A stretch of 64,000 nt of DNA from a virus. Lineage: Duplodnaviria; Caudoviricetes. The stretch covers positions 3,500 through 67,499 of the IMG/VR virus record IMGVR_UViG_3300010052_000131; one strand, 5' to 3'. Each line of letters begins with the position of its first letter. Position 1 is the first letter of the stretch. Shown piece by piece: positions 8,505 through 47,332 of the stretch. A program made the translations under genes and the position numbers. The notes under the pieces were generated by a model, which saw nothing but the letters and a program-made list of their open reading frames with translations, was not told the origin of the DNA and made no database searches.

Positions 8505-8507
8505 GGT

Positions 8508-9692: not shown

Positions 9693-9699
9693 CCGCTCA

Positions 9700-10938: not shown

Positions 10939-10947
10939 TTTTGCATA

Positions 10948-11014: not shown

Positions 11015-11020
11015 GCCGCG

Positions 11021-21960: not shown

Positions 21961-22425
21961 ATGGCTAATAGTGAAGAACTCACGTTCCTTCAGAAGCGCT
22001 TTCTGGTTCAACAGCTTGCGTGCTTCGAGACGCCGACGGCCGCGGCCAAGGCGTTCAAGGAGGAGTTCGGCTTCGAGCTAAAGCGGAACCGGGTCGCATT
22101 CTACAATCCGTCGACAAAGTCGGGCGCGGCGCTGGCTGACGAGTTGAAGACGCTGTTCGCCGAAACCCGGAAGGCGTTCCTCTCGGACATCGACGCCATC
22201 CCGATCGCCAACAAGGCGGTTCGGTTGCGGCATCTGAACCGGCAACTCGAGCACTTCGCCGACAAGAACGCCGCTCCCATCGTGGTGAGCATTCTGGAGG
22301 CCGCGGCAAAGGAAGTCGGCGGGGCCTTCACGAACAAGCGTGAGCACACCGGCAAGGACGGCAAAGACCTGGTACCGGCCGCCGTCGTGACCATCGTCCA
22401 GTTGCCCGACAATGGGAGAAGTTGA
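21961..22425 (+). CDS. terS: Terminase small subunit (DUF2280)
   Basis: FLVQQLACFETPT...VAFYNPS...LF.ETRKAFL...IPIANKAVRLRHL...LEAAAKEVGGAFTNK. Confidence 0.88.
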   Translation: MANSEELTFLQKRFLVQQLACFETPTAAAKAFKEEFGFELKRNRVAFYNPSTKSGAALADELKTLFAETRKAFLSDIDAIPIANKAVRLRHLNRQLEHFADKNAAPIVVSILEAAAKEVGGAFTNKREHTGKDGKDLVPAAVVTIVQLPDNGRS

Positions 22426-23809
22426 GAACGGATCGGCTAGGGTCGTCATCGGCCCGCAACCTGGTCCGCAATCGCAGTTTCTGGCCTCATCGGCCGATAT
22501 CGCGATTTACGGCGGCGCGGCCGGCGGCGGCAAGACATTCGCCGAACTGCTGGAGTGCCTGCGCCACGTCCATGTGCCGGGCTTCGGCGCGGTCATCTTC
22601 CGGCGCACCACGCCGCAGATCAGGAACGAAGGCGGCCTCTGGGACGAGAGCCTGAAACTATTCCCGCTGCTTGGCGGCGTTCCGAAGGAACACGATCTCT
22701 ATTGGTCGTTTCCCGCCGGGACGACGGTTTCGCTCTCGCACCTCGAGCACGATAAGACCGTCCTCAACTGGCAGGGATCGCAGATCCCGCTCATCTGTTT
22801 CGATGAGTTGACGCATTTCACCCAGAAGCAATTCTGGTACATGCTTTCGCGAAATCGCTCGATGACGGGCATTCGCGGTTATGTCCGTGCGACGTGCAAC
22901 CCCGACGCGGATAGTTGGGTCGCCGAGCTGATCGCTTGGTGGATCAATCAGGAGACCGGATACCCGATCCCGGAACGCGCCGGCGTGCTGCGCTGGTTTG
23001 TTCGTATCGGCGACAATATCATCTGGGCCGATCGGCCGGAAGATCTCGCGCAATATGAGGCGCTGAACGAAGACGGGGTGATGGCCCCGATTCCGCCGAA
23101 GTCGCTGACGTTCATTCCGGCGAAGCTGACGGACAACCGGGCCCTGATGAAGGCCGACCCGGGCTACATGGCCAACCTGATGGCGCTGCCATCGGTGGAG
23201 CGGGAACGCCTTCTTGGCGGCAACTGGAAAATCCGCGCCGCGGCCGGCCTGCTGTTTCAGCGCGGCTGGTGTCAAATCATCGACGTGGTGCCCGCGGGAA
23301 CGTATTTCGTCCGCGGCTGGGATTTGGCGGCGACGCCGAAGACCGAAACCAACGATCCGGACTGGACGGCCGGCAGCAAGATCGGCCGCACGATCGACGG
23401 CCGGTTCATCGTCGCGCATCATACGCGCGGGCGCATGCGGCCTTCAGAAGTCGAGCGCCTGCTGGTCAACACAGCTCAGCAAGACGGCTTCGAAACCGAG
23501 ATCGCGCTGCCTCAGGATCCGGCGCAAGCCGGCAAGGCGCAAGCCGAGCACCTGATCCGCCTGCTGGCGGGCTTCAATGTCCATGCCCGGCCGATATCGG
23601 GCGACAAGGTCGTTCGGTTCAGCCCGTTCTCCGCCCAGGCAGAAGCCGGCAACGTGATGGTGCTGCGCGGGCCTTGGAATGACGAATGGTTCACGGCGCT
23701 GGAGAGCTTTCCAGACGCCGCGCACGACGACGACGCGGATGCCACCGCCGAAGCGTTCAACGCGCTGGCGGGCGATAACCTTGCAACATGGGCGAAGCTC
23801 GCGAGCTAG
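22412..23809 (+). CDS. terL: Terminase large subunit
   Basis: YGGAAGGGKT, FDELTHF, ATCNP, RGWDLAA, HDDDADA. Confidence 0.95.
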   Translation: MGEVENGSARVVIGPQPGPQSQFLASSADIAIYGGAAGGGKTFAELLECLRHVHVPGFGAVIFRRTTPQIRNEGGLWDESLKLFPLLGGVPKEHDLYWSFPAGTTVSLSHLEHDKTVLNWQGSQIPLICFDELTHFTQKQFWYMLSRNRSMTGIRGYVRATCNPDADSWVAELIAWWINQETGYPIPERAGVLRWFVRIGDNIIWADRPEDLAQYEALNEDGVMAPIPPKSLTFIPAKLTDNRALMKADPGYMANLMALPSVERERLLGGNWKIRAAAGLLFQRGWCQIIDVVPAGTYFVRGWDLAATPKTETNDPDWTAGSKIGRTIDGRFIVAHHTRGRMRPSEVERLLVNTAQQDGFETEIALPQDPAQAGKAQAEHLIRLLAGFNVHARPISGDKVVRFSPFSAQAEAGNVMVLRGPWNDEWFTALESFPDAAHDDDADATAEAFNALAGDNLATWAKLAS

Positions 23810-23991: not shown

Positions 23992-24044
23992 AGAAATCTC
24001 CCGGTTGGACAAAAACAACCAATAGCTGAGTATCGGCGGTTTTG

Positions 24045-25556
24045 ATGCCTCGTCTTCGCCCGCCCCAGCCGGTATCCACAATAACGGTACCCGATTCCGC
24101 CCGGGGCGCCACCAAGCGCACCCTGCAGAAGGCCATCCGGGCCGAAGTCGCCACCGCGAAGCTGATCCACACCAGCGATAGCTTCCAGAACTTTGCCGCC
24201 AAGGTCGGCATCGGTACCGACAACCAGTCGTCAGCGTCGACATACGGGTTCAATCCGATCAGCCGCAACCGCGGCCTGCTGGAATGGATGTACCGGGGGT
24301 CATGGATCTGCGGAAAGGTGGTCGACTGCCCCGCCGACGACATGACGCGCGCCGGCATCGAAATGTCCGGCGACATCGACCCGGATGATCTCGACAAGCT
24401 GCATAACGGCTTCAACGATCTGGCGATCTGGCCCGGCATCAACGCCACCGCCAAATGGGGCCGGCTGTACGGCGGCGCCATCGGCTTCATGATGATCGAC
24501 GGGCAGAAGCCCGATACGCCGCTGCGGCCGCAGACAGTGCAGAAGGGCGCTTTCAAGGGCATCCTGGTGCTCGATCGCTGGATGGTCCAGCCGAACTATT
24601 CGGAGCTGGTCACCGAGCTCGGGCCCGACCTCGGCAAGCCGAAATACTATGAGACCGTGGTCGAGGGCTTCGCCATCCCGCGGATGAAGATCCATTACAC
24701 GCGGTGCCTGCGCTACGACGGCGTCGACCTGCCGTTCTGGCAGCGGATCACGGAAAACCTCTACGGCATGTCCGTGCTCGAGCGGCTGTACGACCGCCTG
24801 GTGGCGTTCGACAGCACGACGCAGGGCGCGGCCCAGCTCGTCTACAAGGCACATCTGCGCACCCTGGCGGTTGAGGGATTGCGCAACATCATCGCCGCCG
24901 GCGGCAAGGCCCTCGAAGGCCTGGTCGGCCAGGTCGAGATGATGCGCCGCTACCAGACCAATGAGGGCGTCAGCCTGATCGATGCCAAGGATAAGTTCGA
25001 AACGCATCAGTACGCGTTCTCCGGGCTTGACCAGGTCCTGCTGGCGTTCGGGCAGCAATTGTCCGGCGCGGCGGATATCCCGCTGGTTCGGCTGTTCGGC
25101 CAATCGCCGGCCGGGCTCAACGCTACCGGCGACAGCGATATCCGGAACTATTACGACAGCATCAACCAGCAGCAAGAGTTGCGCCTTCGCCGGCCGATGA
25201 CCACGCTGCTGATCGTGCTGGCTAATTCGCTGGGCATCAAGTTACCCGACGGGTGGGGCTTCAAGTTCAACCCGCTCTGGCAAATGTCCGACAAGGAAAA
25301 AGCCGAGATAGCCGACAAGGTTTCGACCGCTGTCGACCGCGTCGAGGGTGCGGGCATTCTCGCGCCAAAGACCGCGCTGAAAGAACTGAAACAGTCGTCG
25401 CGCATCACCGGCATTTTCTCGAACATCAGCGACGAAGAGATCGCGGCGGCCTCAGACGAGCCACCTGATCCGTCGGAGATCGATGGCGCGCCAGGCGTCG
25501 GCGCCGGCCCGGTAATCGCGGACGGGCAGGGCGTTGACGGCACGGGCGATGAATAA
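24045..25556 (+). CDS. Portal protein (DUF1073)
   Basis: SDSFQNFAAKVG, YRGSWICGKVVDCPADDMTRAG, RLYGG, SGAADIPLVRLFGQSPAGLNATGDSD. Confidence 0.93.
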   Translation: MPRLRPPQPVSTITVPDSARGATKRTLQKAIRAEVATAKLIHTSDSFQNFAAKVGIGTDNQSSASTYGFNPISRNRGLLEWMYRGSWICGKVVDCPADDMTRAGIEMSGDIDPDDLDKLHNGFNDLAIWPGINATAKWGRLYGGAIGFMMIDGQKPDTPLRPQTVQKGAFKGILVLDRWMVQPNYSELVTELGPDLGKPKYYETVVEGFAIPRMKIHYTRCLRYDGVDLPFWQRITENLYGMSVLERLYDRLVAFDSTTQGAAQLVYKAHLRTLAVEGLRNIIAAGGKALEGLVGQVEMMRRYQTNEGVSLIDAKDKFETHQYAFSGLDQVLLAFGQQLSGAADIPLVRLFGQSPAGLNATGDSDIRNYYDSINQQQELRLRRPMTTLLIVLANSLGIKLPDGWGFKFNPLWQMSDKEKAEIADKVSTAVDRVEGAGILAPKTALKELKQSSRITGIFSNISDEEIAAASDEPPDPSEIDGAPGVGAGPVIADGQGVDGTGDE

Positions 25557-26359
25557 TGCCCGTCGGATTGCGCTACCGGTCGGTCGACAGGCGCCGGACC
25601 GATACGCCAAAAGACCGCGCCGCGTTCGCCAAGGTCCGCAAGGCTGAAAAGCAATACGCGACACAGCTTCGCAAGGTAGCGCGGCACGTCGGGGACATCA
25701 TCAGGAACCATCATCCTGAGACGTCGGACGGGATGGCCGAAATCCGCGCCATTCTTGCAAAGTATGCCGAGGTGATCGAGCCGTGGGCGAAGGTCGCTGC
25801 GGGGCGCATGATTGCCGACGTCGGCCGGCGTGACGAAAAGGCATGGGAAGCCAATTCGCAGGCCATGGGCCGGGCGCTGCGCGAGGAGCTCGCCAACGCG
25901 CCAACGGGGCAATTCCTTCGTGCCAAGCTGGCGGAGAACGTCGGGCTGATCAAAAGCCTGCCGATCGAGGCCGCCCAGCGCGTTCATCGCCTGACGCTTG
26001 AGGGCATCAATAACGCCACGCGCGCCGGCGAGATCGCCAAGGAGATCGGGCGCAGCGGCGAAGTGACGGTGGCCCGCGCCAACATGATTGCTCGGACGGA
26101 AGTTTCCCGAACCGCCTCAGGCCTGGTCGAGGCCCGATCCCGCCATGTCGGCTCCGAAGGTTACATCTGGCGCACGGTCGGGGACAGCGACGTCCGGAAC
26201 AAGGACGGCAACCCGGTCGGTTCGCACCGCCTGCTCAACGGCAAATTCATTCGCTGGGACAGCCCGCCGGTCGCGAGCACCAATGGCGATCGATATCACG
26301 CCGGATGCGGCCCTAACTGCCGCTGTTATCCGGAACCGGTTCTACCCGAAGACTACTAG
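25556..26359 (+). CDS. Head morphogenesis protein (Mu gpF/SPP1 gp7)
   Basis: RANMIARTEVSR, YIWRTVGDSDVR..H, HAGCGPNCRCYPEP. Confidence 0.92.
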   Translation: MPVGLRYRSVDRRRTDTPKDRAAFAKVRKAEKQYATQLRKVARHVGDIIRNHHPETSDGMAEIRAILAKYAEVIEPWAKVAAGRMIADVGRRDEKAWEANSQAMGRALREELANAPTGQFLRAKLAENVGLIKSLPIEAAQRVHRLTLEGINNATRAGEIAKEIGRSGEVTVARANMIARTEVSRTASGLVEARSRHVGSEGYIWRTVGDSDVRNKDGNPVGSHRLLNGKFIRWDSPPVASTNGDRYHAGCGPNCRCYPEPVLPEDY

Positions 26360-26380: not shown

Positions 26381-26674
26381 ATGAAACGCCTGATCGTTGC
26401 CGCCATTGCCGCCACCACGCTCGCCGCGCCCGCCCTCGCCAAGGACGTCCAGTTGACGCTGAATGAGCCGCAGCAGCAGGCCTTGCTGCAGGTTCTCGAT
26501 AAGGCCACGCGCGATGGCGGCCTTGCCGCGGCCAACAGCGGCACCGTCTATTTCTTCAATCTGCTCAAGAACGCGGTCGACGCCGCCAACGCGCCGCCGC
26601 CGCCGCCCGCTCCGGAAGCCAAGGCGGAGCCGGAAGCGAAGCCTGAGCCCAAAGCAGAACCGCCGGCCCAGTAA
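26381..26674 (+). CDS. Exported small protein with Pro/Ala/Glu/Lys tail
   Basis: Sec signal MKRLIVAAIAATTLAAPALA|K. Confidence 0.75.
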   Translation: MKRLIVAAIAATTLAAPALAKDVQLTLNEPQQQALLQVLDKATRDGGLAAANSGTVYFFNLLKNAVDAANAPPPPPAPEAKAEPEAKPEPKAEPPAQ

Positions 26675-26698
26675 TCGCCACCACGCATTTCACCTTCG

Positions 26699-26728
26699 AG
26701 GCCGTCCACCAGGGCGGCCTTTTCATTT
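26699..26728 (+). terminator. Intrinsic terminator-like hairpin
   Basis: aggccgtcc-acca-gggcggcct followed by tttcattt. Confidence 0.5.
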
Positions 26729-26744
26729 GGAAAAGGGAATATCC

Positions 26745-27350
26745 ATGATCCGCAGTCGCAAGCTGGTTTCCGCTGCCATTCTCGCTGGCCTCGCATTGTC
26801 GTTCCTGCCGCTGCAGGCGATCGCGCTGACCCCGAGCTTTGCCAACCCGCCGTTCCAGCGCCCGACCTTCAGCGCCGCGGCCGTCGGCATCGCCATTCCG
26901 CAGACCGGCGCCATGGACGCGGTATGCATCGCGGGTTCCGCCACCAAGACGGTGCGGATCAAGCGCATCACGATTTCCGGCATCGACGCCACCGCGCAGA
27001 CCGCCACCGTCAACCTGGTGCTGCGCTCCGCCGCCAGCACCGGCGGTACCTCGACGTCGCCGTCGGTGGTCCCGCTGGATTCGTCGAACGCGGCCGGTAC
27101 CGCGGTCGTCAAGGCTTACACCGTCGCATCGACCCCGGGCGCCGCGATCGGCACCGTGCGTTCGCAGTCGATCGGCTTTGCCGCGGCAACCGGATCGGCC
27201 GCCCAAGCCGTCACCTGGAACTTCGACCCGGAAACCATGTCGCAGGAAGTCATCCTGCGCGGCGTGGCCCAGCAGGCCTGCATCAACTTCCCGGCCGCAT
27301 TCACCACGGCCGGCCCCACCATCAACGTCGACGTGACCTGGACTGAGTAA
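26745..27350 (+). CDS. Exported beta-sandwich virion-type protein
   Basis: Signal MIRSRKLVSAAILAGLALSFLPLQAIA|L; 2 Cys; A/G/T/S rich. Confidence 0.75.
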   Translation: MIRSRKLVSAAILAGLALSFLPLQAIALTPSFANPPFQRPTFSAAAVGIAIPQTGAMDAVCIAGSATKTVRIKRITISGIDATAQTATVNLVLRSAASTGGTSTSPSVVPLDSSNAAGTAVVKAYTVASTPGAAIGTVRSQSIGFAAATGSAAQAVTWNFDPETMSQEVILRGVAQQACINFPAAFTTAGPTINVDVTWTE

Positions 27351-27386
27351 CGGCAGCGTCAACAGTTGACCGGGAAGGGAGCGGCC

Positions 27387-27794
27387 ATGAGAAAGATCGC
27401 CGGTTACATGGCTGTCGCCGCGATCGCGCTGTTCGCGTGGTCGCTCCCGGCTTCCGCCCAAAGCGGACCCGTCAAATTCCTGTCGACGGCCGGCACGAAT
27501 TCCAACCTGGTGCGCGGCGCGCCGACGCTGCTCAAGAGCGGCGTGATCAGCAACGGCACCGCGACCGCGTACTTTCTCAAGCTTTACAACAAGACGCTGG
27601 CGCCCGTCTGCGGGACGGACATTCCGCGATGGACGGTACCGCTTCCTGCCAACAGCAACACGCCGCTGTCCCTTGGCGATGGCCTGTTCTTCCCGTCCGG
27701 CCTCGGCATCTGCCTGACGGGCGCGATCGCCGACAACGATAACACGCCTGCCGCGGCCGGCGTCGCGATCAATCTTGGGGTTTCCGGCAAATGA
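27387..27794 (+). CDS. Exported small jelly-roll virion-type protein
   Basis: Signal MRKIAGYMAVAAIALFAWSLPASA|Q; YFLKLYNK..APVCGTDIP...GLFFPSGLGICLTGA; 2 Cys. Confidence 0.75.
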   Translation: MRKIAGYMAVAAIALFAWSLPASAQSGPVKFLSTAGTNSNLVRGAPTLLKSGVISNGTATAYFLKLYNKTLAPVCGTDIPRWTVPLPANSNTPLSLGDGLFFPSGLGICLTGAIADNDNTPAAAGVAINLGVSGK

Positions 27795-29527
27795 TCAGGA
27801 AGCTATCGCTCGCGCTCGCGGTTTCCGTAGCCCTTGTTGGCTCGGCATTCGCTCAGGCCTCGTTCACCGCCAAGGATGGCAACAACGTCATCCGGACCTT
27901 CAAATCGTTCTCGTGCTCCGGAATGATCTGTTCGCTGGCGGTGCCGGCGGATGCCAACGGCAACGCCTTCGGCGTCTCTGCCAATCCATTCTATATGGCG
28001 TTCGGCGCCGGCGTGACGCTTCCGGGCTTCGCCGCCGCGCCTTCCTTCAAGCTGCAGGACGGATCGGGCAACGCGATCGGCTCCACGTCCGGCTCCCTCA
28101 ACGTCAATATTACGGGCGGCGGTGGAGGCGGGGGCGGCAACGTCAACCTGACCCAGATCCTCGGAGCGGCGCCCAGCGCGACCAACCCGCTGTGGATCCA
28201 GCCCGGCACCGGCGCTTCGTTCGCCGTCACCGGCACATTCTGGCAGGCCACCCAGCCCGTCAGCATCGCTTCGATGCCATCGACCCCGGTGACGGGCACT
28301 TTCTGGCAGGCGACGCAGCCGGTCAGCGCCGTTTCGCTTCCGTTGCCCGCGCTCGCGGCGACGTCCACCAAGCAGAGCGACGGCACGCAAAAGACCCAGA
28401 TCGTTGATGGGGCCGGCAACGTCATCGCTTCGACGTCGAACAATCTGAACGTCCAGTGCGCAAACTGCTCTGGATCGGGCGTGAGTACCGCGGACGGCGC
28501 GAGCTTCGCAGCCGGGTCATCGCTTTTTGCCGGCGCCGGCGGCATCTTCCAGAACACGCCCACCAACAACCCTGTCGCCGATGGCAAGCAGGGCCTGTTC
28601 CAGATGACGGCCAACCGTGCGCAGCACGTCAACTTGCGCAGCGCGGCCGGCGTCGAGCTCGGCGTTGCCGCCGCTCCCGTGCAGGTCTCGCTGGCCAACA
28701 CGGCCGCAAACGGCACTGCCTTGCTGGTCACAGGGACGGGCGGCACGTTCCCGGTCACCGGGTCGTTCTGGCCCTATTCGTTGGGACAGCAACTCGCCGC
28801 TTCGTCCGTTCCTGTTATCCTGCCCGCGGCGACGATCGCCACACTGACGCCGCCGGCTGCGATCACCAACTTTTCGCTTGAGACCGGCGGCAACCTCGCT
28901 GGCATACTCACCACGCTCGGAGCCGTCTCTGCCTCACCAACGGCAAACACCGTGCAGGATCGCCTCAAGACGGTGGGCGCCAACACGGTCGCCTTGGGCG
29001 TTGGGACCGAAACAACGTGCCCAGCCTCAGGCGCCACGACGCTGATCGGCTGCATCCGGGCGGTCGCAACCCTTGCTGCCGCTCCGCTCCCCGGGCAGGT
29101 CAGCTTCGGCGTCAACATTGGCGCGGCGCAACTGCTGGACTCGAATTCCAAGACGGCGCTCCTCGACCCTTGCGAATATGGCGCGCACGTCTGGACCCGG
29201 ATTGACGTCGCGACCGCCGCATCTTCGGTTCTTGTCCCCGGAACGAGCTCGAAGAAAACCTACATTTGCTCGATCGGTCTCATGGCCGCCGGAACAACCA
29301 ATCTGGGAATTGTCGAAGGCTCCGGAACTACGTGCGGAACGTCGCCGCTGGGTTTGATCGGCGGCAATACCGCGGCGAAGGGCTTGAACCTCACAGCGCA
29401 GGCGGGCGTCGCATTCGGCAACGGCGCAAAGGCAATTGCCGCGTCAACCGTCAACGCCAACGATATCTGCCTGATCAACGGATCGGCAATTCAGGTGTCG
29501 GGCTACATCGTGACGGCAACGCCTTGA
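27791..29527 (+). CDS. Exported fibre-like protein with VTGTFWQATQPVS repeats
   Basis: Signal MIRKLSLALAVSVALVGSAFA|Q; Gly8 linker; 10 Cys. Confidence 0.8.
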   Translation: MIRKLSLALAVSVALVGSAFAQASFTAKDGNNVIRTFKSFSCSGMICSLAVPADANGNAFGVSANPFYMAFGAGVTLPGFAAAPSFKLQDGSGNAIGSTSGSLNVNITGGGGGGGGNVNLTQILGAAPSATNPLWIQPGTGASFAVTGTFWQATQPVSIASMPSTPVTGTFWQATQPVSAVSLPLPALAATSTKQSDGTQKTQIVDGAGNVIASTSNNLNVQCANCSGSGVSTADGASFAAGSSLFAGAGGIFQNTPTNNPVADGKQGLFQMTANRAQHVNLRSAAGVELGVAAAPVQVSLANTAANGTALLVTGTGGTFPVTGSFWPYSLGQQLAASSVPVILPAATIATLTPPAAITNFSLETGGNLAGILTTLGAVSASPTANTVQDRLKTVGANTVALGVGTETTCPASGATTLIGCIRAVATLAAAPLPGQVSFGVNIGAAQLLDSNSKTALLDPCEYGAHVWTRIDVATAASSVLVPGTSSKKTYICSIGLMAAGTTNLGIVEGSGTTCGTSPLGLIGGNTAAKGLNLTAQAGVAFGNGAKAIAASTVNANDICLINGSAIQVSGYIVTATP

Positions 29528-29535
29528 TATCCAGA

Positions 29536-30465
29536 ATGAACGTTCGCTCTCACATCACGGCGCTCTACGCGGCGCTGTTCGCTGTCCTGTTGGCGGTTTC
29601 GCCAGCCGGATCAGGATCGATGACGCTCTTGGGGGTAGGGAAGCCCTCTGGCGCCGCTGGCGGATGCTCGCAAGCCACAGCGTTCCTCGCTCGAACGACG
29701 GGTTTGAGTGGAACCGAAACATCTGCCTACACGACGTTGATTTGCGGCTTGGTGACCGACGGCGTCATCACCGGGACAATGGCGGGTTCTGGAGTTGGCG
29801 CGAGTGCGTGCGGTTCAATTCTTGATCTCCTTTACATCACAACGACGAAAAATACCTCGACCGCATCGCTCAATCTTTGCAGTACTTCTTTCACGGCGAC
29901 ACCGTTTGGGTCGTTGACCTTTTCAGCCGACAATTATTGGTCGCCTGATGACGCTCTTTCAGGGCTTGATACCGGGTTCAATCCGAATACCGCAGGCGGT
30001 GCCTTTTCGCTCAATAGCGCCTCTATGGGGGGCTGCGTTCTCAATAATCGGACGTCAAACGCGAACACGTATGCGATTGGCGTTCAAGACACATCGACCG
30101 TGTCGCTGTTGCAACTTCTCAATGGAGGGCAAGCTCTTTTCGATCTGAACGAAGCGGCTTTTTCGCAAGCTGCCAACACGTCGAGCATCGGCAGCTGGAC
30201 GTTGACGCGCGGTAACAGCACGAGCTTAATTCTGTATAACAACGCGACGTCCTTCGCCTCCGTCAGTGCCGCCTCATCGTCTGTTCCCAATTTTTCGATC
30301 TATCTGATGGCCAACAATAACAAAGGATCGGTCTCCGGAGGAAGCACGAACGACCAGTTTGCTGCTTTTTGGGTGGGTGGGAATTTGACAAGTGGATTGG
30401 TAACGAGCTTGCGGACACGGATCGCAGCATTCGTGCTTGCGGTTAAAGGATCGTCCGGATGCTGA
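29536..30465 (+). CDS. Exported lectin-like (ConA/LamG-type) protein
   Basis: Signal MNVRSHITALYAALFAVLLAVSPAGS; LDTGFNP...LILYNN..S...SIYLMANN...FAAFWVGGNL; 6 Cys. Confidence 0.65.
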   Translation: MNVRSHITALYAALFAVLLAVSPAGSGSMTLLGVGKPSGAAGGCSQATAFLARTTGLSGTETSAYTTLICGLVTDGVITGTMAGSGVGASACGSILDLLYITTTKNTSTASLNLCSTSFTATPFGSLTFSADNYWSPDDALSGLDTGFNPNTAGGAFSLNSASMGGCVLNNRTSNANTYAIGVQDTSTVSLLQLLNGGQALFDLNEAAFSQAANTSSIGSWTLTRGNSTSLILYNNATSFASVSAASSSVPNFSIYLMANNNKGSVSGGSTNDQFAAFWVGGNLTSGLVTSLRTRIAAFVLAVKGSSGC

Positions 30466-33083
30466 CCATCAATCGACGGTCATTTGTTCATGCAGGATGC
30501 ATGGCAGCTATAGCGAGCGCTGTGCCTTCGATGGGCGAGGCAAGGGTTCCTCGAGGTAACCCAATCTCGTTCAACGATCCTCTTCTGTCCAAACGCAGCG
30601 TCATCAACGTTGGTTCTGCAAGTCAGTTCCACTACGCATTTATCAATCACTTTCTCTCCGGTGATGCGTGCGTAGGGCCCTACAACACGGCCTTTACGAC
30701 CACAACGAACACCTGGCCGCAATATATCGATGCCGACGGCTGGCCGAATGTGCCGGTGGGTGGCGAGTGGTTCGCCGGATCTATCCGATTGCCGGCGTCC
30801 GCCGATTTCGGCGGAAATTACACGATTACATGGACGGGGGACGGGGAGGTCCTGCTCAATAGCGGGACATGGACTGTCAACGCAGGCCTGAGCAGCAACT
30901 ACACAGAGGTTTCGAACGGTCGATACACCAACACGCCGGGTTTGGTGCCAAAGATCGTTGTTTCAGTTACCGGCTTCTCGCATCCTACGCTTTTGAGCGT
31001 CATCTTTCTCTCGACCGATCCGAATTCGGCTGGGCGTTTTCTGAAGAATTTCAAATTCTACCGGACGGCAGACGAGGCCAGGCTTCAGTCTGGCAAGGTT
31101 TTCCGAACCGCATTCCTGCAGTCCCTCGTCAACCTCAATCCCTCGGCGATCCGCTGCATGGATATGCACGGCGGCAACGATGCGAGGAACTGTCGGTTCG
31201 AAAATCGCACGCTACCGAGCGCTGCGGGATATTCCGGCCGCTCAAATTGGGTTGCTTCGCCAGCCTACGGAAAAGCGTCGTTTGTCGACGGCGTCAACGC
31301 CAACCAGTACACCTTGGCTGCCGTTACCAGCGGGGCCAGGCAGACCGCGGCGTCAATGGTTCACGGCGAGATCGTCACCTGCCTGATTAATACCGCTGCT
31401 GTCAGGAACGGTACGTTCACGGGCGGCGGCGTCTTCCGCACCGTGACTTCGATCTCCAAGGCATCGAATGGGCGCGTCGTTTGCGCGAGTCACGGGTTCG
31501 AGACGGGTGACACGATTGTTCACCTGATCCCAACCGGAATGACGCAGCTGCACAAGTTCCCGTGCGTTATCACCAAGATCGACGCCAACACCTATGACCT
31601 GAATGTCAATACGAGCGGTTTTTCCACGTTCACGGCGGGGACGGCCAACCAATTCATCACGCTCCAGGTCGGTAGCGGGAACGATCGCACGAAGTATCCC
31701 GTCATCTTCTCCGATGGCACCACTTATGCTTCTACCTACGGCGATGGGTATTTGAAGCTTCGCCAGTATCAAACCTTCTATTTCGACAAGACGCTTTCTG
31801 CGCAAAACGATAGTTCCGGCAATCCGATTTACGGCGTTTGGATTTTCCTCGACAATTCTGGCGGTGCTCACCCCGGCGACGTGCCTGCCGAAATTTGCGT
31901 CGCGCTCGTCAACGAGGTGAACGAGCTTGCTCTGTCTCAGGGCAAAACAAATACGACCCATCTTTGGTTGAACATTCCCCATTGGGGGCTGTCATCCATG
32001 GACCCGGACTATAGCGCTGCGTCGAATTTCGCCGTTAAAACCATGGATGTCGTTCTGAACGGCGCGAACGGATATCCCGGCTTGGCTTTGCCGGCGAGCG
32101 TTTTGCTGGAGGACGACAACGAGACCTGGAACACAGCGGGCGCCGCGTTTACTCAGGCTCTTTATCTGGCTGCGCGAGGCGTCCTACGCTGGCCTTCAAC
32201 CAGCAGCTTGTCTGACTTCGCCAGCATGGCGGCGCTACGGTCTACCGTGATGGTCCGGGATGTGAAGGCGGCAACAGGTAACACTACGCGGATACGCTAT
32301 GTGCTCGCCGGACAGGGCTTTCTTGGTTATAATTCTGGCACGCTCAACGGGCTTCGTTGCCTGGGTACCGCGTCATACCTGACCGATGCACTCGTCACCG
32401 GAGGCAATTTCGGCACTCCGATTTCCAATCACGATGCTTTCGCGCACGGGACTTATTTCGACGCGGGGGATGACACTCATTATTATGGCCCCGGCAAGGG
32501 AATAGGCACTTTCACCGATGACAGCGCCATGTATCAGGGCCTCAACAACACCGTGAACGGTGGCGGCAATTATTCCGGTGCGGCCAATCAATCTCAGGCG
32601 ATTGCGAACTTTGTAGCCGCCGTCGTCGGGGGCGGCGGGCAATCTTGCAACTACTATTGCAGTGTCGCGTCTCCCGCGGCGGGCAAGGACGCGGAGTTTG
32701 CCGCCGCGATGGTGGCGTTAGGTAAGAAATCTATCACCTATGAAGGCGGGCCGGATTGGATTTCACGCCAAGGTGCAAATGAGTATGCTGGCTATGGTCC
32801 CCTCAGCGCGGGTGATGCGGCCTTCAAGCGGGCTGTGCAGAACAGTGCGGCATGGGGAACCGCGCAGACGAACTATTTCAATGCGAAGTGTACGCTGGCC
32901 GGCATCGCCATGCCGGGAGTATACTTCATCGTCAGCGATTTTGATGGACTAGGAACGACGCTCGACCAGCGTTGGGCCTACGCTTCGCCGGACACGTATG
33001 CAGGCGGCACTGAAGGCCAAGCATTACTGAACAATGGAGCATGGGTGGCGATGGGCGCGAGAAATCAAGCGCTCACGCCTTGA
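30459..33083 (+). CDS. Tat-exported clan GH-A glycoside hydrolase-like protein with FCCH-like insert
   Basis: NRRSFV twin-arginine; AIRCMD, GDVPAEICVALVNEV..LWLNIPH, DDNETWN, ITYEGG. Confidence 0.65.
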   Translation: MLTINRRSFVHAGCMAAIASAVPSMGEARVPRGNPISFNDPLLSKRSVINVGSASQFHYAFINHFLSGDACVGPYNTAFTTTTNTWPQYIDADGWPNVPVGGEWFAGSIRLPASADFGGNYTITWTGDGEVLLNSGTWTVNAGLSSNYTEVSNGRYTNTPGLVPKIVVSVTGFSHPTLLSVIFLSTDPNSAGRFLKNFKFYRTADEARLQSGKVFRTAFLQSLVNLNPSAIRCMDMHGGNDARNCRFENRTLPSAAGYSGRSNWVASPAYGKASFVDGVNANQYTLAAVTSGARQTAASMVHGEIVTCLINTAAVRNGTFTGGGVFRTVTSISKASNGRVVCASHGFETGDTIVHLIPTGMTQLHKFPCVITKIDANTYDLNVNTSGFSTFTAGTANQFITLQVGSGNDRTKYPVIFSDGTTYASTYGDGYLKLRQYQTFYFDKTLSAQNDSSGNPIYGVWIFLDNSGGAHPGDVPAEICVALVNEVNELALSQGKTNTTHLWLNIPHWGLSSMDPDYSAASNFAVKTMDVVLNGANGYPGLALPASVLLEDDNETWNTAGAAFTQALYLAARGVLRWPSTSSLSDFASMAALRSTVMVRDVKAATGNTTRIRYVLAGQGFLGYNSGTLNGLRCLGTASYLTDALVTGGNFGTPISNHDAFAHGTYFDAGDDTHYYGPGKGIGTFTDDSAMYQGLNNTVNGGGNYSGAANQSQAIANFVAAVVGGGGQSCNYYCSVASPAAGKDAEFAAAMVALGKKSITYEGGPDWISRQGANEYAGYGPLSAGDAAFKRAVQNSAAWGTAQTNYFNAKCTLAGIAMPGVYFIVSDFDGLGTTLDQRWAYASPDTYAGGTEGQALLNNGAWVAMGARNQALTP

Positions 33084-33583
33084 GCAATGCTGCGTTGCTG
33101 CCGTTGCCGATAGATACCAAGCATCGCAAAGCCGATTAATAGCATAAGCCAGGTAGATGCTTCTGGAATTCCGCTGGCAAGGGACCCTCTAAGGTCGACA
33201 TCTACAGTCGATCCCGGCGAAAAAAGATCGGCCGACATAGGATCAATAAAGACGAAGACGTGAATTTCTCCGGTACCGGTAAATGCCAGTCGAGAATGCC
33301 CGGCCGCGCCCAATATCCAATCAATGCGAATGTCGTCGACGGTCGGGTTTGCAAAATCAATGATAGTGCCGTCGGGCAAATTCGATCCGAACACGCCGAT
33401 AGATGGTGGGGAATCAAGGCCGGAGGGGATATCGAAAATCACTTCCTGGGCGCCTGCTGGTCCCACCTGATTGAATGTCAGGGTGGCTACGGAATTTAGC
33501 GTCAGAAGGGTAGCGGCGCCCGCTGGCAATATTGTTTGGATTAAAAGCCCAATGCAGAAAGAGTAGGCTGCAAATCTCATCAT
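33065..33583 (-). CDS. PEP-CTERM (PEPxxWA type) surface protein, moron
   Basis: Signal peptide; C-terminal IPEASTWLMLLIGFAMLGIYRQRQQR. Confidence 0.82.
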   Translation of the reverse strand: MMRFAAYSFCIGLLIQTILPAGAATLLTLNSVATLTFNQVGPAGAQEVIFDIPSGLDSPPSIGVFGSNLPDGTIIDFANPTVDDIRIDWILGAAGHSRLAFTGTGEIHVFVFIDPMSADLFSPGSTVDVDLRGSLASGIPEASTWLMLLIGFAMLGIYRQRQQRSIAQGVSA

Positions 33584-33678
33584 CAGAAACACCCCTGAAC
33601 TATAAGGGGTATTTCAACGTTCCCGCCCCGGTTGAGTCAATTGGCCTAAATCAAATAATCCGCCTAGACTTTAGTTGA

Positions 33679-33987
33679 TTACCACGCTCTTTTGCTCTGT
33701 TCTTCTTGGTATTCAGCCTCGGTCATGGGCCGAAATTCCCATGCTCCGTCCACAAGACGGCGCATCTCATGTTGGTTATAGGGATGCCATGTCCCGTCAC
33801 GACGGCGTTTGTGATCCCGTACAAACAGGACCACGATCACGAGTGTGATGAGAGCCGCGGAAACGCAGCCAATAATCATACGATCCTCTGCGCGCTGCCC
33901 GGCTGATGCGGGTGGTTGAAACCCAGCCATAACCCGCTGCGCGTCTAACGATCCGCCAAGCTGCTTGGCGAAGTCTGCTTTCTCCAC
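33679..33987 (-). CDS. Small membrane protein, moron
   Basis: Single TM helix, antisense, AT-richer; GTG start uncertain. Confidence 0.55.
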   Translation of the reverse strand: MEKADFAKQLGGSLDAQRVMAGFQPPASAGQRAEDRMIIGCVSAALITLVIVVLFVRDHKRRRDGTWHPYNQHEMRRLVDGAWEFRPMTEAEYQEEQSKRAW

Positions 33988-34009
33988 AGCCGCCTCCGGG
34001 CGGCTTTTT
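33988..34009 (+). terminator. Intrinsic terminator
   Basis: agccgcc-tccg-ggcggct-tttt. Confidence 0.7.
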
Positions 34010-34026: not shown

Positions 34027-35406
34027 ATGAAGTTCTATGTCACCGAACGTTTGGGCCCGAAGCGGAGCCTGACGCCGGAAGGGTTTTTGCTGTGCCAGGA
34101 CGTCCCGGTCGCGCGGGTCGGTTTCCAGGACTACCACGAGAGCGAATTGCCGCTTGAAGCGGACCGCGGCGTGATCCGCGTGCAGCGCCTCGAGGACGAG
34201 GTTTTCAAGCCGGAGGCACTGGCCTCGATCGCGGGAAAATCGGTCGTCATCACCCATCCCGACGATGACGTTAGCCCCGACAACTGGCGGGACCTCGAAG
34301 TCGGCGTGATGCTGACCCCGCGGCGAGGCGAGGGCTCCTTGTCTGATCGGATCCTGTGCGACTTCCTGATCAAGGACCCGCGCGGGATCAAGGCCATCGT
34401 CGAAGACGGGATGCGCGAAGTCTCGCTGGGGTACGACGCCGAATACGAAATGGTTCGGCCAGGCCTCTACACCCAACACACCATCATCGTGAACCACGGC
34501 GCAATCGTACCTGAGGGCCGATGTGGCCCGGCTTGTTCAATAGGAGATCACAGTATGCCGACCACCAAGAAGCCGCTCACCTTTAAGGATCGTTTGTTGG
34601 CCGCGTTCAAGGCCAAGGACGAAGCTGCGATCGAGAAGCTCGCCGGCGAAGTCACCGAGGACGAAGCGATCGCCGAGAATGATCTGTCCGGCAAGTCCGC
34701 TTCCGGCATCACGATCAACGTGCACGGCCAGAGCGCCGCGCCCGCGGCCGAAAAGTCCACCACGGACGAAGGCGGCGAGGGCGCGAACAAGGATGATCCG
34801 ATGAAGCCCGTCATGGACGCGATCGGCGCCCTGGGCGAGCGGATCGCCAAGCTCGAAGGTGCGGGATCGTCCACCACTACCGATGCCGACGGCGATGACG
34901 ACGAAGACGAAGGCGAGAGCACCAACGACGCCGACGGCGACGATGAGGACGACAACGACAAGGGCAAAGACAAGACCAAGGACGGGAAGGGCAAGACGCG
35001 CGATTCCGCCGGCCTCGCCACCACGTTCCAGGACACGATTGCCCGCGCCGAAATTCTCTCGCCCGGCATCAAGGTTCCGACCTTCGACGCCAAGGTGGAA
35101 CGGAAGAAAACGCAGGACGCCCTGTGTGCCTTCCGTCGCAAGGTGCTCGACAAGGCCTTCACCACCGACGAGGGCAAGGCCGCGATCGAGCCGCTGCTGG
35201 CCGGCCGCACGCTGGACACCAAGAAGATGACCTGCGACGCGGCCTCCATCCTGTTCACCGCCGCGTCGGAGAACATGAAGGCGGTCAATCGCGCCGCGAC
35301 CACCGGCACCGGCAAAATTCGCGTCGGCGATATGGGTTCCACCAAGGCCCCGACCATCGGCGACATGAACAAGAGCTTCGGCGACTTCTGGAAGCCCAAG
35401 GTCTGA
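34027..35406 (+). CDS. Prohead protease (DUF2213) fused to scaffold
   Basis: RSLTPEGFLLCQDVPVARVG, THPDDDVSPDNW, REVSLGYDAEY, NHGAIVPEGRCGPACSIGD; acidic scaffold tail. Confidence 0.92.
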   Translation: MKFYVTERLGPKRSLTPEGFLLCQDVPVARVGFQDYHESELPLEADRGVIRVQRLEDEVFKPEALASIAGKSVVITHPDDDVSPDNWRDLEVGVMLTPRRGEGSLSDRILCDFLIKDPRGIKAIVEDGMREVSLGYDAEYEMVRPGLYTQHTIIVNHGAIVPEGRCGPACSIGDHSMPTTKKPLTFKDRLLAAFKAKDEAAIEKLAGEVTEDEAIAENDLSGKSASGITINVHGQSAAPAAEKSTTDEGGEGANKDDPMKPVMDAIGALGERIAKLEGAGSSTTTDADGDDDEDEGESTNDADGDDEDDNDKGKDKTKDGKGKTRDSAGLATTFQDTIARAEILSPGIKVPTFDAKVERKKTQDALCAFRRKVLDKAFTTDEGKAAIEPLLAGRTLDTKKMTCDAASILFTAASENMKAVNRAATTGTGKIRVGDMGSTKAPTIGDMNKSFGDFWKPKV

Positions 35407-35472: not shown

Positions 35473-36009
35473 GTGAAGCTCACCAAGAGGATTCGCGCGA
35501 AGACCCGTGACAACGCGTTCATTTCGCGCATGCCCGCCGGCATCCCCGGCACGCTCAGCCGTTCCGCGGCGCAATCGACGGTGGATACCGTCAACATCAC
35601 CCCTTTCGGCACCGCCGGCGCTTTCCCGGCCTACGGCCTGGGTGGCCTGATCGACGCCGTGACCGGCAATTTCCGCATCCCGGCCGCGGGCGATACCGCG
35701 ATCACCGGCATCTTGATCCGTCCGTTCCCGACCAACAATTCGCAGGACGGTTTGGGCACTTCGACCCCGCCCACGAAAGGCTTGGTGGACCGCGCGCTGC
35801 GCGCCTATGTCAGCGTGCTCTTGAGCGGCGCCACCGCCCCGAAGAAGGACGGCGCCGTCTGGTGCCGCATCCAGAACGCTGGTGCTGGCCAGTTTGTCGG
35901 CGGCTTTGAGGCCGCGGCCGACGGCGGCAATACCGTGGCCGTTCCTGGCGCTTTCTTCACCGGGCCTGCCGACGGCAACGGCGTGACCGAGATCCGCTTC
36001 AACATCTGA
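35473..36009 (+). CDS. Capsid cement/decoration protein
   Basis: AFISRMPAGIPGTLSR...GILIRPFP...RAYVSV...TEIRFNI; position between protease and capsid. Confidence 0.85.
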   Translation: MKLTKRIRAKTRDNAFISRMPAGIPGTLSRSAAQSTVDTVNITPFGTAGAFPAYGLGGLIDAVTGNFRIPAAGDTAITGILIRPFPTNNSQDGLGTSTPPTKGLVDRALRAYVSVLLSGATAPKKDGAVWCRIQNAGAGQFVGGFEAAADGGNTVAVPGAFFTGPADGNGVTEIRFNI

Positions 36010-36110: not shown

Positions 36111-37193
36111 ATGAAACACGATATTGAGTTCATCGACGCGGCCCGCAAGCTGTACGGCAATCCCGTCTGCGCGCCGCACATCATCGGCGTGCGCACCCGC
36201 GCCAAGACCCGCGACGGCCTGATGACGTTCGACGCCCGAACGATCGACAGCACCGGCGCATTCCTGATCGGCGAGCTTGAGCGCCTCGATCAGACCCTGC
36301 ATATGCCGCTGGTCAACTACACCTGGTCCCGCGACATCAAGCTGCGCGAAGACGTCACGATCGCGGACGAAACCTCGAGCTTCACGAACTCCAGCTTTGC
36401 TTCCGGCGGCGGCGTCACCCCGAACGGAAAGGCCTGGTTGTCCAAGAACGCCAATCAGATCCCGAACGTCCAGCTCGATATCGGCAAGACCGCCAATCCG
36501 CTGAACCTGTGGGCCCACGAAATGTCGTGGACGCTGCCCGAGCTCGAAAGCGCCATCAAGCTGGGCCGCCCGATCGACGCGCAGAAGTTCGCCGGCCTGC
36601 AGCTCAAGCACCAGATGGACATCGACGAACAGGTCTACGTCGGCGATACCGTTCTGGCCGTCAACGGCCTGACGAATTCTGCCGTCGTGACCACTGGCAA
36701 CGTCGTCGCCGGCGCGCTGGGTGGCACCCAGTGGGCCACCAAGACCCCGGACGAAATCCTCGCCGACGTCAACACGCTGCTCTATTCGACCTATGCGGCG
36801 TCGGGCTTCGCGCGCATTCCGAACGAACTGCGCCTGCCGCCGCTCCAGTACGGCTACATCGTGTCGCAGAAGGTCTCCGGCAACGCGGACAAGTCGATCC
36901 TGACCTATCTGCTGGAGAACAACCTTGCCAAGCAGAACGGCACGCCGCTCAACATCCAGCCGCTGAAATGGCTGATCGGACGCGGCGTCGGCGGCACCCC
37001 GTTCCAGCTCGGCACGGTGGACCGCATGATCGCCTACACCAACGATCCCATGTTGGTCCGCTTCCCGATGGTGCCCCTGCAGCGCACCCCGCTGGAGTAT
37101 CGCAGCCTGTGGCAGTCGACCACGTATTACGGCCGGTTGGGCGTGGTCGAGTTCGTCTATCCGGAGACGCTGCAGTACGCCGACGGCCTCTGA
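36111..37193 (+). CDS. Major capsid protein (DUF2184)
   Basis: GAFLIGELERLDQTLHMPL...WSRDIKLREDV...WTLPELESA...IDEQVYVGD...YYGRLGVVEFVYPET. Confidence 0.92.
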   Translation: MKHDIEFIDAARKLYGNPVCAPHIIGVRTRAKTRDGLMTFDARTIDSTGAFLIGELERLDQTLHMPLVNYTWSRDIKLREDVTIADETSSFTNSSFASGGGVTPNGKAWLSKNANQIPNVQLDIGKTANPLNLWAHEMSWTLPELESAIKLGRPIDAQKFAGLQLKHQMDIDEQVYVGDTVLAVNGLTNSAVVTTGNVVAGALGGTQWATKTPDEILADVNTLLYSTYAASGFARIPNELRLPPLQYGYIVSQKVSGNADKSILTYLLENNLAKQNGTPLNIQPLKWLIGRGVGGTPFQLGTVDRMIAYTNDPMLVRFPMVPLQRTPLEYRSLWQSTTYYGRLGVVEFVYPETLQYADGL

Positions 37194-39079: not shown

Positions 39080-39574
39080 ATGCCCGATATCGACGTTTCC
39101 GACCTGCTGTTCGATTCGGACATCGCGGGCGAAAGCTTCATCGTAATCCGCCGGCAGGAAATCGTCGGCGATAACGGCGTGTCGGTGCTGACGGCAACGT
39201 CGCTTCCGTTGCCGGGCGACGCTCCTATCGTCGGTTCGATTACGCCGACGGGCGACAACTCGCTGGTGCGCCAAGAGGCATATCAGACCCAGGCCAACAC
39301 CATCCTGGTGATCACGCCGTTTCGGTTACGCGGTCCCTCGAAAGACAGCGGCGGCGCCTCGTTTCAGCCCGACGTGGTCGTGTGGAACGGCAACCATTTC
39401 GTGGTGAAGACGCTCAACGAATGGACGTCATTCGGCGCGGGCTTCGTCGAAGCAGAATGCTCGTCGATCGACCTGATCGAACTGGCGCCCGGCGAAACCC
39501 CGCCGGGGGAAGGCAACGGCCTCGATTTCTCGCGCGACGACAACACGATCTATATCCCAGCGATCATCAAGTGA
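39080..39574 (+). CDS. Head-closure protein with C-terminal LDFS tag
   Basis: MPDIDVSDLLFDSD...PDVVVWNGNHFVV...GAGFVEAEC. Confidence 0.8.
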   Translation: MPDIDVSDLLFDSDIAGESFIVIRRQEIVGDNGVSVLTATSLPLPGDAPIVGSITPTGDNSLVRQEAYQTQANTILVITPFRLRGPSKDSGGASFQPDVVVWNGNHFVVKTLNEWTSFGAGFVEAECSSIDLIELAPGETPPGEGNGLDFSRDDNTIYIPAIIK

Positions 39575-46888: not shown

Positions 46889-47332
46889 ATGCGATATCGC
46901 GCGCTCGACGCCAATGGCGACTACACGTTCGGCCGTGGTCAAGCCAACTTCCTGGTTAATTCGCCAGCCTGCGTGGCGCAATCTGTCCTGACGCGTCTGC
47001 GATTATGGGAAGGCGAGTGGTTCCTTGATCAGACAGAAGGCACGGCCTGGTTGCAGCAAATATTGGGGCGGAATTCCAAGCCTATTTACGATCTCGCGAT
47101 CCGCACCCGGGTTCTGGGAACCGCCGGCGTGACGTCGATCGACGAATATTCCAGTACGCTCGACGACGTGACCCGACGGCTTGCGGTCAAGATGAAGATC
47201 ATCACCGCTTTCGATAGCGCGCCGATCGCGATCAGCGCCGTCGTCGTGCCGCCGGGCGATGGCGAACACAGCCTCGATTTCTCGCGCGACGATGTGAACA
47301 ATCTGATCTACGTGCCGGCAATCATTCACTAG
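46889..47332 (+). CDS. Baseplate wedge initiator (gp46-like) with C-terminal LDFS tag
   Basis: MRYRALDANGDYTFGRG...TRLRLWEGEWFLDQTEGT.W. Confidence 0.85.
   Translation: MRYRALDANGDYTFGRGQANFLVNSPACVAQSVLTRLRLWEGEWFLDQTEGTAWLQQILGRNSKPIYDLAIRTRVLGTAGVTSIDEYSSTLDDVTRRLAVKMKIITAFDSAPIAISAVVVPPGDGEHSLDFSRDDVNNLIYVPAIIH

Follow-up and report, generated by a model that had tools for sequence, protein, structure and literature searches.

In the textbook account of tailed phages, all late structural-type proteins are found in the cytoplasm. Sec-exported envelope proteins such as Bor and Lom of lambda, Llp of T5, and Cor of phi80 and N15 are encoded in or beside structural operons and are dispensable for assembly; T5 Llp masks the receptor, also protecting progeny. 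Tailspike and tail-fibre depolymerases, bound to the virion or set free at lysis, target the surface polysaccharide of the host, and free enzyme from lysis helps progeny to spread. Two described bacterial systems combine export with phage-like folds. The MAT fibres of Bdellovibrio bacteriovorus are signal-bearing, mosaic phage-like fibres that bind glycans on bacterial surfaces, one of them having a tip with a disulfide (PMC10769870). WceF of Pantoea stewartii is a Tat-exported exopolysaccharide (EPS) hydrolase of tailspike fold, which is encoded in the stewartan gene cluster and trims the EPS of its own producer (PMC7949094). Our literature search, the coverage of which was incomplete, found no account of tailed phages with structural-type proteins that bear signals. 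Here, we analyze a block of six genes, g1 to g6, in a 64,000-nucleotide stretch (the window) of the IMG/VR provirus record IMGVR_UViG_3300010052_000131 (67.5 kb; G+C 62%). All six genes lie on the + strand and fill positions 26381-33083, between a Mu-F-like head morphogenesis gene and a DUF2213 protease/scaffold-type gene. We propose, at a probability of about 0.5, that the block is an accessory export cassette, built in layers at an insertion hot-spot, whose products bind and cut envelope polysaccharide, and that it is not head-assembly machinery.

The six genes carry predicted export signals

The block and its two borders comprise the following genes (aa, amino acids):

25556-26359, + strand: Mu-F-like head morphogenesis gene, left border of the insertion site (Pfam PF04233, E 1.4e-12)
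26381-26674, + strand: g1, 97 aa; predicted Sec signal, helical core, Pro/Ala/Glu/Lys-rich tail, 0 Cys
26745-27350, + strand: g2, 201 aa; predicted Sec signal, 2 Cys, stand-alone domain of ~165 aa
27387-27794, + strand: g3, 135 aa; predicted Sec signal, 2 conserved Cys
27791-29527, + strand: g4, 578 aa; predicted Sec signal, fibre-like, 10 Cys
29536-30465, + strand: g5, 309 aa; hydrophobic N terminus with a weaker signal, 6 Cys, G+C at third codon positions (GC3) 0.61
30459-33083, + strand: g6, 874 aa; predicted Tat signal, clan GH-A glycosidase-like, 11 Cys
34027-35406, + strand: DUF2213 protease/scaffold-type gene, right border of the insertion site (Pfam PF09979, E 3.7e-44)

Signals were scored by a heuristic that combines hydropathy, charge, and the AxA motif, together with their conservation in homologues. 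A Sec signal was defined by a basic n-region, an uncharged h-region of 8-15 residues, and small residues at positions -3 and -1, and a Tat signal by an S/T-R-R-x-F-L-K-type motif preceding a mildly hydrophobic h-region. We found that g1 to g4 fit the Sec definition and g5 fits it more weakly, while g6 fits the Tat definition. The N terminus of g1 reads MKRLIVAAIAATTLAAPALA followed by KD, with the cut predicted at ALA↓K; the predicted cuts in g2, g3, and g4 are LPLQAIA↓L, WSLPASA↓Q, and VGSAFA↓Q. The N terminus of g5, MNVRSHITALYAALFAVLLAVSPAGSGS, is less canonical and has no clear AxA site, and that of g6 contains the twin-arginine sequence NRRSFVHAGC. Among the ~82 genes of the window (a rough script-based call, as in all fetched loci), signal-like N termini are otherwise rare, being limited to g7 on the opposite strand beside the block, two genes at 49906-53026, one at 9977-10429, and one or two doubtful cases. 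Thus, six signals in a row are not a product of chance.

The signals recur in relatives of the individual proteins. Stand-alone homologues of g3 (45-74% identical) carry an AxA↓Q-type signal together with both cysteines in 13 of 13 cases. A search of 5.8 billion proteins returned at least 1683 homologues of g4, and signals are present in 96 of the best 120; in this family, the mature protein opens with a conserved domain, roughly [AQ]..[FY].[IA]KDGNG..QT.K.F.C....C, directly after the signal. As for g6, a script pattern count over the 72 homologues listed gave about 27 with a twin-arginine motif, which typically reads SRRDFIHAGC and stands in register with NRRSFVHAGC, and the same type of motif occurs in the homologue at locus L163, described below. 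The public gene call of g6 (P0001, 850 aa) begins at Met25 (30531 instead of 30459) and thus loses the Tat signal. At the upstream start, there is an AAAGGA ribosome-binding site and an overlap with the stop of g5; because of these two features and the conserved Tat motif, we favor it over Met25. Judged from this conservation, the signals are real features, as a preliminary description of the locus had held in reporting six co-oriented genes with five Sec-type and one Tat-type N terminus.

Cysteine pairs accompany the signals

The mature proteins g1 to g6 contain 0, 2, 2, 10, 6, and 11 cysteines, respectively, the same counts as first reported. In the alignment of the g3 domain, both cysteines are present in g3 itself and in loci L067, L003, L014, and L002 (the L002 protein is cut at the contig edge and is close to the signal-bearing L014), whereas they are replaced (by V/I/G and A/S/G/R) in five signal-less fused proteins (L016, L019, L026, L042, and L074). 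One exception, L022, has a signal and lacks the cysteines. A similar distribution was found for the g2 domain, in which both cysteines occur in 17 of 43 signal-bearing but only 1 of 107 signal-less members among the best 150 matches (Fisher p = 6e-10, overstated since related sequences are treated as independent). Homologues of g4 have a median of 8 cysteines with a signal and 4 without. Because the cysteine pairs of the g2 and g3 domains are almost confined to signal-bearing members, the signal-bearing forms are likely to fold in the periplasm, and the exported proteins probably gain disulfides there. This agrees with the export and periplasmic disulfide formation initially suggested for the block.

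The Mu-F/protease junction is an insertion hot-spot

We examined 80 viral contigs with Mu-F relatives 47-59% identical to that of the window and located the protease gene in 71 of them. The distance between the Mu-F and protease matches is at most 110 nucleotides (nt) in 28 of 71 and at most 400 nt in 45 of 71, too little space for genes like those of the block, so that adjacency is the usual state; the remaining 26 contain inserts of 0.4-2.9 kb with varying cargo. In three loci (L116, L117, and L119), g2 stands alone between Mu-F and the protease gene (46% identical, with the signal kept). L129 has g2 and g3, both signal-bearing, L120 has a g2-like gene with a signal 3' of Mu-F, and L147 has a g2 match, with no protease match found in that locus. 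Three other signal-bearing genes occupy the junction in L145, and several contigs contain signal-less genes of another kind. The largest insert was seen in L067, the phage of which has a portal 42% and a Mu-F protein 48% identical to those of the window. Its 12.6 kb hold about nine genes, all with signal-like N termini: a g2-type gene, g3, an IPT/TIG protein, a small protein that is g1-like by eye, a g4-type gene, and four large proteins (549-884 aa), among them one with the g5 domain. The Mu-F/protease junction is therefore an insertion hot-spot with variable cargo, and the block is optional and has grown by accretion. Being optional, it cannot be a required component of head assembly, which leaves room for an optional decoration.

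The block itself consists of at least two layers, as indicated by its composition. GC3 is about 0.8 in g1 to g4, matching the phage's own composition, and only 0.52-0.66 in g5 to g8, where g7 and g8 are two genes on the opposite strand that follow g6. We regard g5 to g8 as the second, later layer. A search for flanking repeats that would mark an insertion mechanism found none.

Similar runs of genes occur elsewhere. We found 419 relatives of the FWQATQPVS region of g4 in IMG/VR and fetched 80 of the loci. Signal-bearing genes made up 31 of 83 neighbors of signal-bearing g4-type genes, as compared to 16 of 185 neighbors of signal-less relatives (p = 5e-8, with relatives treated as independent). 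With F for the g4-type gene and S for a signal-bearing gene, the runs read S-S-S-S-F-S in L008, S-F-S-S-S-S in L021, and F-S-S in L009, in which three signal-bearing genes lie 3' of the capsid genes. In L003, an unrelated low-G+C phage, a signal-bearing run at 6954-14985 lies directly upstream of the terminase gene; it encodes a g3-type protein, a g4-type protein of 1028 aa in which the NLNVQCANCSGSG core is duplicated, and two further proteins of 507 and 765 aa, and a single small open reading frame within it lacks a signal. Pfam and PHROG searches with ten cassette partner proteins from L067, L003, and L009 gave only an IPT/TIG domain and a pectate-lyase-like match just below the cut-off. 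By the gene order in these loci, the cassette is a self-contained mobile unit.

Phages with unrelated heads share a conserved mature N-terminal domain in their g4-type proteins. Because of this, we infer that its partner is not a particular capsid and may be another cassette member or a component of the host envelope. The preliminary description had first suggested a head-fibre or decoration apparatus. As a part of this capsid, such an apparatus is not supported: the genes are absent from most relatives, cassettes lie elsewhere in unrelated phages, g6 resembles glycosidases of bacterial polysaccharide loci, and no match to a known decoration or head-fibre family was found in Pfam and PHROG, which leaves room for a new family. 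Its second suggestion, a late-expressed secreted complex, is closer to the evidence.

g6 is predicted to be an exported clan GH-A glycosidase-like enzyme

The AlphaFold2 (AF2) model of g6 (pLDDT 90.7, pTM 0.91) is confident except for residues 1-36, which are disordered, in line with an export signal at this end, and consists of a beta-sandwich, an FCCH-like insert, and a (beta/alpha)8 barrel. Its VIA matches are to glycoside hydrolase (GH) families: GH51 (arabinofuranosidase 3ug3; Z 22.5, root-mean-square deviation (rmsd) 2.8 Å over 290 residues), GH79 (heparanase/glucuronidase 5bwi; Z 21.5), and GH1, GH5, and GH53 (Z 18-19); Foldseek matched GH50, GH53, and GH2. The beta-barrel insert at about residues 283-351 matches the FCCH domain of E1. 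Three residues, N554 and E555 (after the strand at 548-552) and E762 (within the strand at 757-765), are invariant in 50 homologues. With the strand numbering taken from strand order, N554-E555 and E762 would sit where the acid/base and the nucleophile of retaining GH-A enzymes lie and are candidate catalytic residues. A Pfam search of g6 matched no GH family. Together, the model and the Tat signal point to a predicted Tat-exported, retaining-type clan GH-A glycosidase-like enzyme. The fold match replaces the earlier view of g6 as a lectin-like virion protein.

A scan of viral contigs for g6 gave no match. In a genome scan with a 10-sequence alignment, full-length relatives in named genomes were found only in Bradyrhizobium. 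Two homologues, each 41% identical to g6, from Bradyrhizobium sp. SZCCHNS2002 (L163) and B. erythrophlei GAS478 (L162), lie inside polysaccharide biosynthesis clusters. The SZCCHNS2002 gene (L163, 9977-12667) encodes a Tat signal and is surrounded by genes for an RmlC-type epimerase, NDP-sugar epimerases, a nucleotidyl transferase, glycosyltransferases of the GT2, GT25, and GT1 families, and a Wzx-type flippase. By analogy, the homologue in these two strains may be a chain-trimming counterpart of WceF that has a GH-A fold. The restriction of full-length relatives to Bradyrhizobium, with which the G+C content of 62% is in keeping, suggests that the host group of the window phage is probably Bradyrhizobium-like.

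g2 to g4 are built from modules that recur in fibre-type proteins

The block was first described as rich in Gly, Ala, Ser, and Thr, and these residues indeed make up 40-51% of g2 to g6. We found that g2 is a stand-alone copy of a C-terminal domain of ~165 aa that is common in phage fibre-type proteins. This domain was found in 3567 representative clusters (50% identity, E<=1e-3), always at the C terminus, and the Atlas clusters nearest to g2 are 88-100% viral. In other phages, the g3 domain likewise forms the C terminus of long fibre-type proteins; both the g2 and the g3 domain are beta-sandwiches, and the g2 to g4 families as a whole are overwhelmingly viral. A survey of homologues for forms without signals, as originally advised, showed that g2 to g4 modules do occur in signal-less fibre-type phage proteins.

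The g4 protein is a mosaic fibre: after the signal come an N-terminal domain with a CxxxxC motif, a run of Gly, the FWQATQPVS repeat in two copies, and a NLNVQCANCSGSG core that is conserved, and the C-terminal tip is a jelly-roll. The repeats, noted at the outset, are real and correspond to the following element:

28217-28342, + strand: FWQATQPVS-encoding repeat, two tandem 63-nt copies, 75% identical

AF2 modelled g4 with confidence only over residues 455-578 (pLDDT >90, as compared to a mean of 59 for the whole model), which form an 8-stranded beta-sandwich. The matches of this tip in the PDB (Ena pili, YomS/XepA, cement proteins, C1q/TNF, and carbohydrate-binding modules (CBMs)) reach Z 6-8, which is within the search noise. 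XepA was considered as a precedent and dropped, as it is reported to be secreted without a signal. When the profiles of the g2 domain, the g3 domain, and the g4 tip were compared with one another, no homology was detected; at this level of comparison, they are three different domains. Signal-less relatives of g4 are Cys-poor, have many FWQ repeats, often start with MADNVGYTPG, and lie among tail-fibre-like genes, and the PHROG to which one repeat-region relative belongs is annotated as virion structural protein. We also noted that residues ~195-310 of g4 (window 28400-28700), beginning QKTQIVDGSGNVIASTSNNLNVQCANCSGSGVS, are the most conserved stretch of the family, with a near-invariant CxxC, and are poorly modelled.

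The g5 protein matches PHROG 18498, to which no function is assigned (E 1.6e-6), and aligns over 266 aa, at 39% identity, with a segment of a signal-bearing protein of 859 aa in L067. Otherwise, g1 to g5 gave no useful match in Pfam and PHROG and none to a decoration or head-fibre family, g1 having no family match at all in either. Sequence searches of the PDB with g2, g4, and g5 gave no match, and none was found in 50,697 isolated phage genomes, which were searched at the DNA (distant) and protein levels with g4, g2, and the whole block.

Setting of the block and further signal-bearing genes

The window phage is a contractile-tailed temperate phage. Its late region runs from a DUF2280 small-terminase-type gene through large terminase, portal, Mu-F-like gene, the six-gene block, DUF2213, cement, and major capsid to the tail genes, which include sheath (DUF3383), baseplate J, DUF2612, and a tail-fibre gene. 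The remaining features in and around the block are as follows:

22412-23809: large terminase
24042-25556: portal
26698-26721, + strand: terminator-like hairpin 3' of g1 (10 pairs, 7 of them G-C; T-rich tail)
33065-33592, - strand: g7, PEP-CTERM protein, 175 aa, convergent with g6, GC3 0.52
33679-33987, - strand: g8, about 100 aa, one membrane-spanning stretch, convergent with g6, GC3 0.56
33988-34005, + strand: terminator-like hairpin and T-run directly 5' of the protease gene
35473-36009: cement protein without a signal (PF22758/PF23982)
36111-37193: major capsid protein

From g1 to g6, the intergenic spacings are 70, 36, -4, 8, and -7 nt. The pairs g3/g4 and g5/g6 overlap, whereas, as a correction to the tight coupling first ascribed to the six genes, g1 is parted from g2 by the strong terminator-like hairpin at 26698-26721. 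A scan for the sigma-70 consensus gave 5 weak matches as compared to 2.4 expected, none of them 5' of g1 or g2, and hence no convincing internal promoter. The g7 protein matches PF07589 (23.5 bits; cut-off 20.7) and, ending in IPEASTWLMLLIGFAMLGIYRQRQQR, contains the PEP motif, the membrane-spanning stretch, and the basic tail; no exosortase was found in the record. No Pfam or PHROG family matched g8.

The tail-fibre gene starting at 49334 encodes only 190 aa, of which the N-terminal 124 residues match PHROG 11303. Two signal-bearing genes lie 3' of this stub (49906-53026) and encode a 313-aa tail-collar protein (PF07484) and a 722-aa fibre-type protein with 9 cysteines. At the same site, the phage of L067 has a single 405-aa signal-less fibre, followed by lysis genes.

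Two other proteins, a head-closure-type (39080-39574) and a baseplate-wedge-type protein (46889-47332), share a C-terminal tag of ~20 residues, LDFSRDD..IY.PAII[KH], which follows a PPG-rich linker. The tag is missing from more than 30 relatives, including those of the L067 phage, which end 25-40 residues earlier. We considered whether the tag is tied to the presence of a cassette and rejected this, as it is missing from the L067 phage and from all other relatives examined. In the early/immunity region, a gene on the - strand (9977-10429) encodes a 150-aa protein with the signal-like N terminus MNRLVSGALLAFAWSMTTIA and no Pfam or PHROG match.

Weighing the explanations of the block

The reading of g1 to g6 as an accessory export cassette draws its accessory status from the variable presence among relatives and the two compositional layers, and its glycan target from the GH-A fold of g6, the Bradyrhizobium homologues in polysaccharide clusters, and the neighboring PEP-CTERM gene g7. 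As suggested by their orientation and by the overlapping stops and starts, g1 to g6 would be transcribed with the late genes. Their products, to judge from the conserved sequence features, would cross the inner membrane by Sec or Tat and, given the association of cysteine pairs with signals, would form disulfides in the periplasm. The exported proteins could then bind and trim envelope polysaccharide (EPS, capsule, or O-antigen), both in the dying cell and, after their release by lysis, around it. Receptor-bearing glycan would in this way be cleared or masked, which would spare progeny from being trapped or would exclude other phages. Several points weigh against this account. The signals are heuristic predictions, and the statistics that link cysteines to signals suffer from the relatedness of the sequences. 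The composition of g1 to g4 is phage-like and not obviously foreign. The g2 to g4 domains are common to virion-fibre-like proteins, with the nearest Atlas clusters 88-100% viral, and a virion role would be natural for them. Moreover, Sec and Tat reach only the periplasm of a diderm cell, which leaves access to the surface glycan before lysis without explanation.

It is also conceivable, if rather unlikely, that g2 to g4 and perhaps g5 are virion appendages that mature in the periplasm and dock on finished capsids or tails at lysis, as head fibres or decoration of a kind that could not fold in the cytoplasm. Their genes lie in the head operon in late orientation, their modules recur in signal-less fibre-type proteins within tail-fibre neighborhoods, a relative of the g4 repeat region is annotated as virion structural, and decoration proteins of the T4 Hoc/Soc type can bind finished capsids. 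This possibility gains some weight from the 190-aa tail-fibre stub followed directly by two further signal-bearing fibre-type genes, one of them tail-collar, where the L067 phage has a 405-aa fibre. However, the cassette is missing from most relatives that share the head genes, and its occurrence in phages with unrelated heads and at other positions, with the g4 N-terminal domain conserved, speaks against capsid-specific docking. The L067 phage possesses a complete, ordinary, signal-less tail fibre of 405 aa besides its cassette, and it lacks the head-closure/wedge C-terminal tag despite the larger size of that cassette. Attachment would probably also be inefficient through dilution at lysis. 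We are also doubtful of the broader idea of a second assembly route, outside the cytoplasm, in tailed phages of soil bacteria. By this route, exported fibre-type parts, including the head-operon proteins of the block and the products of the two genes after the stub, would gain disulfides in the periplasm and join the cytoplasm-built particle only at lysis. A reading in which the hydrophobic N termini are uncleaved anchors that tether fibre-type proteins to the inner membrane until lysis appears quite improbable. Some h-regions are long, such as the one of about 20 residues in the tail-collar protein (49906-50847), and g5 has no clear AxA site; but short h-regions followed by AxA↓Q-type sites are found in g1 to g4 and in 13 of 13 g3 homologues, and the Tat motif of g6 is canonical. 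The cysteine pattern cannot separate anchors from cleaved signals, because the bulk of the protein would face the periplasm in both cases.

Alternatively, the block could be cargo for lysogenic conversion, from which the resting prophage expresses adhesins or polysaccharide-remodelling functions for its host (biofilm, symbiosis, or phage exclusion) with no part in the late cycle. The varying presence among relatives, the foreign composition of g5 to g8, and the terminator-like hairpins 3' of g1 and 5' of the protease gene would suit such a role. So would the placement of g7 and g8 on the opposite strand, as is often the case for morons, the need of g7 for a host exosortase, and the fact that the g6 homologues are ordinary members of host polysaccharide loci. 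We nevertheless give this a low likelihood, as g2 to g6 are co-oriented and translationally coupled with the late operon, the sigma-70 scan yielded no convincing internal promoter, and the g2 to g4 families are overwhelmingly viral. Finally, chance or mis-annotation, with wrong reading frames or starts and artefactual signals, has next to no probability. The public start of g6 at Met25 could be cited in its favor, but the AAAGGA site, the overlap with the g5 stop, and the Tat motif in about 27 of the 72 homologues listed support the upstream start, and homologues of g2, g3, and g4 on unrelated contigs keep their signals; on these conservation data, this explanation is already contradicted.

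Implications of fibre-type proteins with export signals

Fibre modules that are known from other phages appear here with Sec signals and paired cysteines, and this pattern is found in a large share of the metagenome relatives. The modules travel in multi-gene export cassettes that also include polysaccharide enzymes of host type. If the proteins act freely, they would represent an unstudied class of phage accessory functions directed against the glycan coat of the host, and would matter for how receptors are masked, how progeny escape, and how biofilms are penetrated among soil and root bacteria. Should they instead join the particle, a new assembly route would follow. In practical terms, the lectin-like tips, presumably stabilized by disulfides, and the GH-A enzyme are candidate probes for Bradyrhizobium surface polysaccharides. 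Annotation pipelines that name such genes tail fibres or trim their signals will mislead, and the Met25 call of g6 illustrates how automatic choice of the start can hide an export signal.

Comparison with known systems

Exported morons such as Bor/Lom, Llp, and Cor are single small lipoproteins or outer-membrane proteins, whereas the cassette in the window combines multi-gene fibre modules with an enzyme and has no lipobox. The decoration and head-fibre proteins T4 Hoc/Soc, lambda gpD, and phi29 gp8.5, as well as the cement protein of the window, share with g1 to g6 the position in the head cluster. Hoc/Soc, gpD, and gp8.5, however, lack signal peptides and attach to capsids inside the cytoplasm, and searches of Pfam, PHROG, and PDB sequences showed no homology to such proteins in g1 to g5. 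Phage depolymerases also differ from the block in that they fold in the cytoplasm without signals.

The g6 protein resembles GH-A enzymes in its barrel, its accessory beta-sandwich, and, as far as strand order indicates, probably also the N-E pair after the fourth strand and the Glu on the seventh; it differs from GH51, GH79, GH5, GH53, and GH1 members in a sequence identity of about 10% and in the extra FCCH-like insert. The Bradyrhizobium homologues of g6 share with WceF the Tat signal and the location inside a polysaccharide biosynthesis cluster. WceF, in turn, is a trimeric beta-helix of bacterial origin, in contrast to g6, which is prophage-borne and has a (beta/alpha)8 GH-A fold. Compared by layout, the MAT fibres are like the g4 family in having a signal, a conserved beta-rich N-terminal domain, a mosaic shaft, and a variable beta-sandwich tip, and the tips of g4 and of the MAT protein Bd2133 match weakly (Z 6.2, rmsd 3.2 Å over 102 residues). 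The two differ in their setting, as the MAT fibres are encoded by chromosomal genes of a predatory bacterium and displayed on its surface, while g4 lies in the late operon of a phage.

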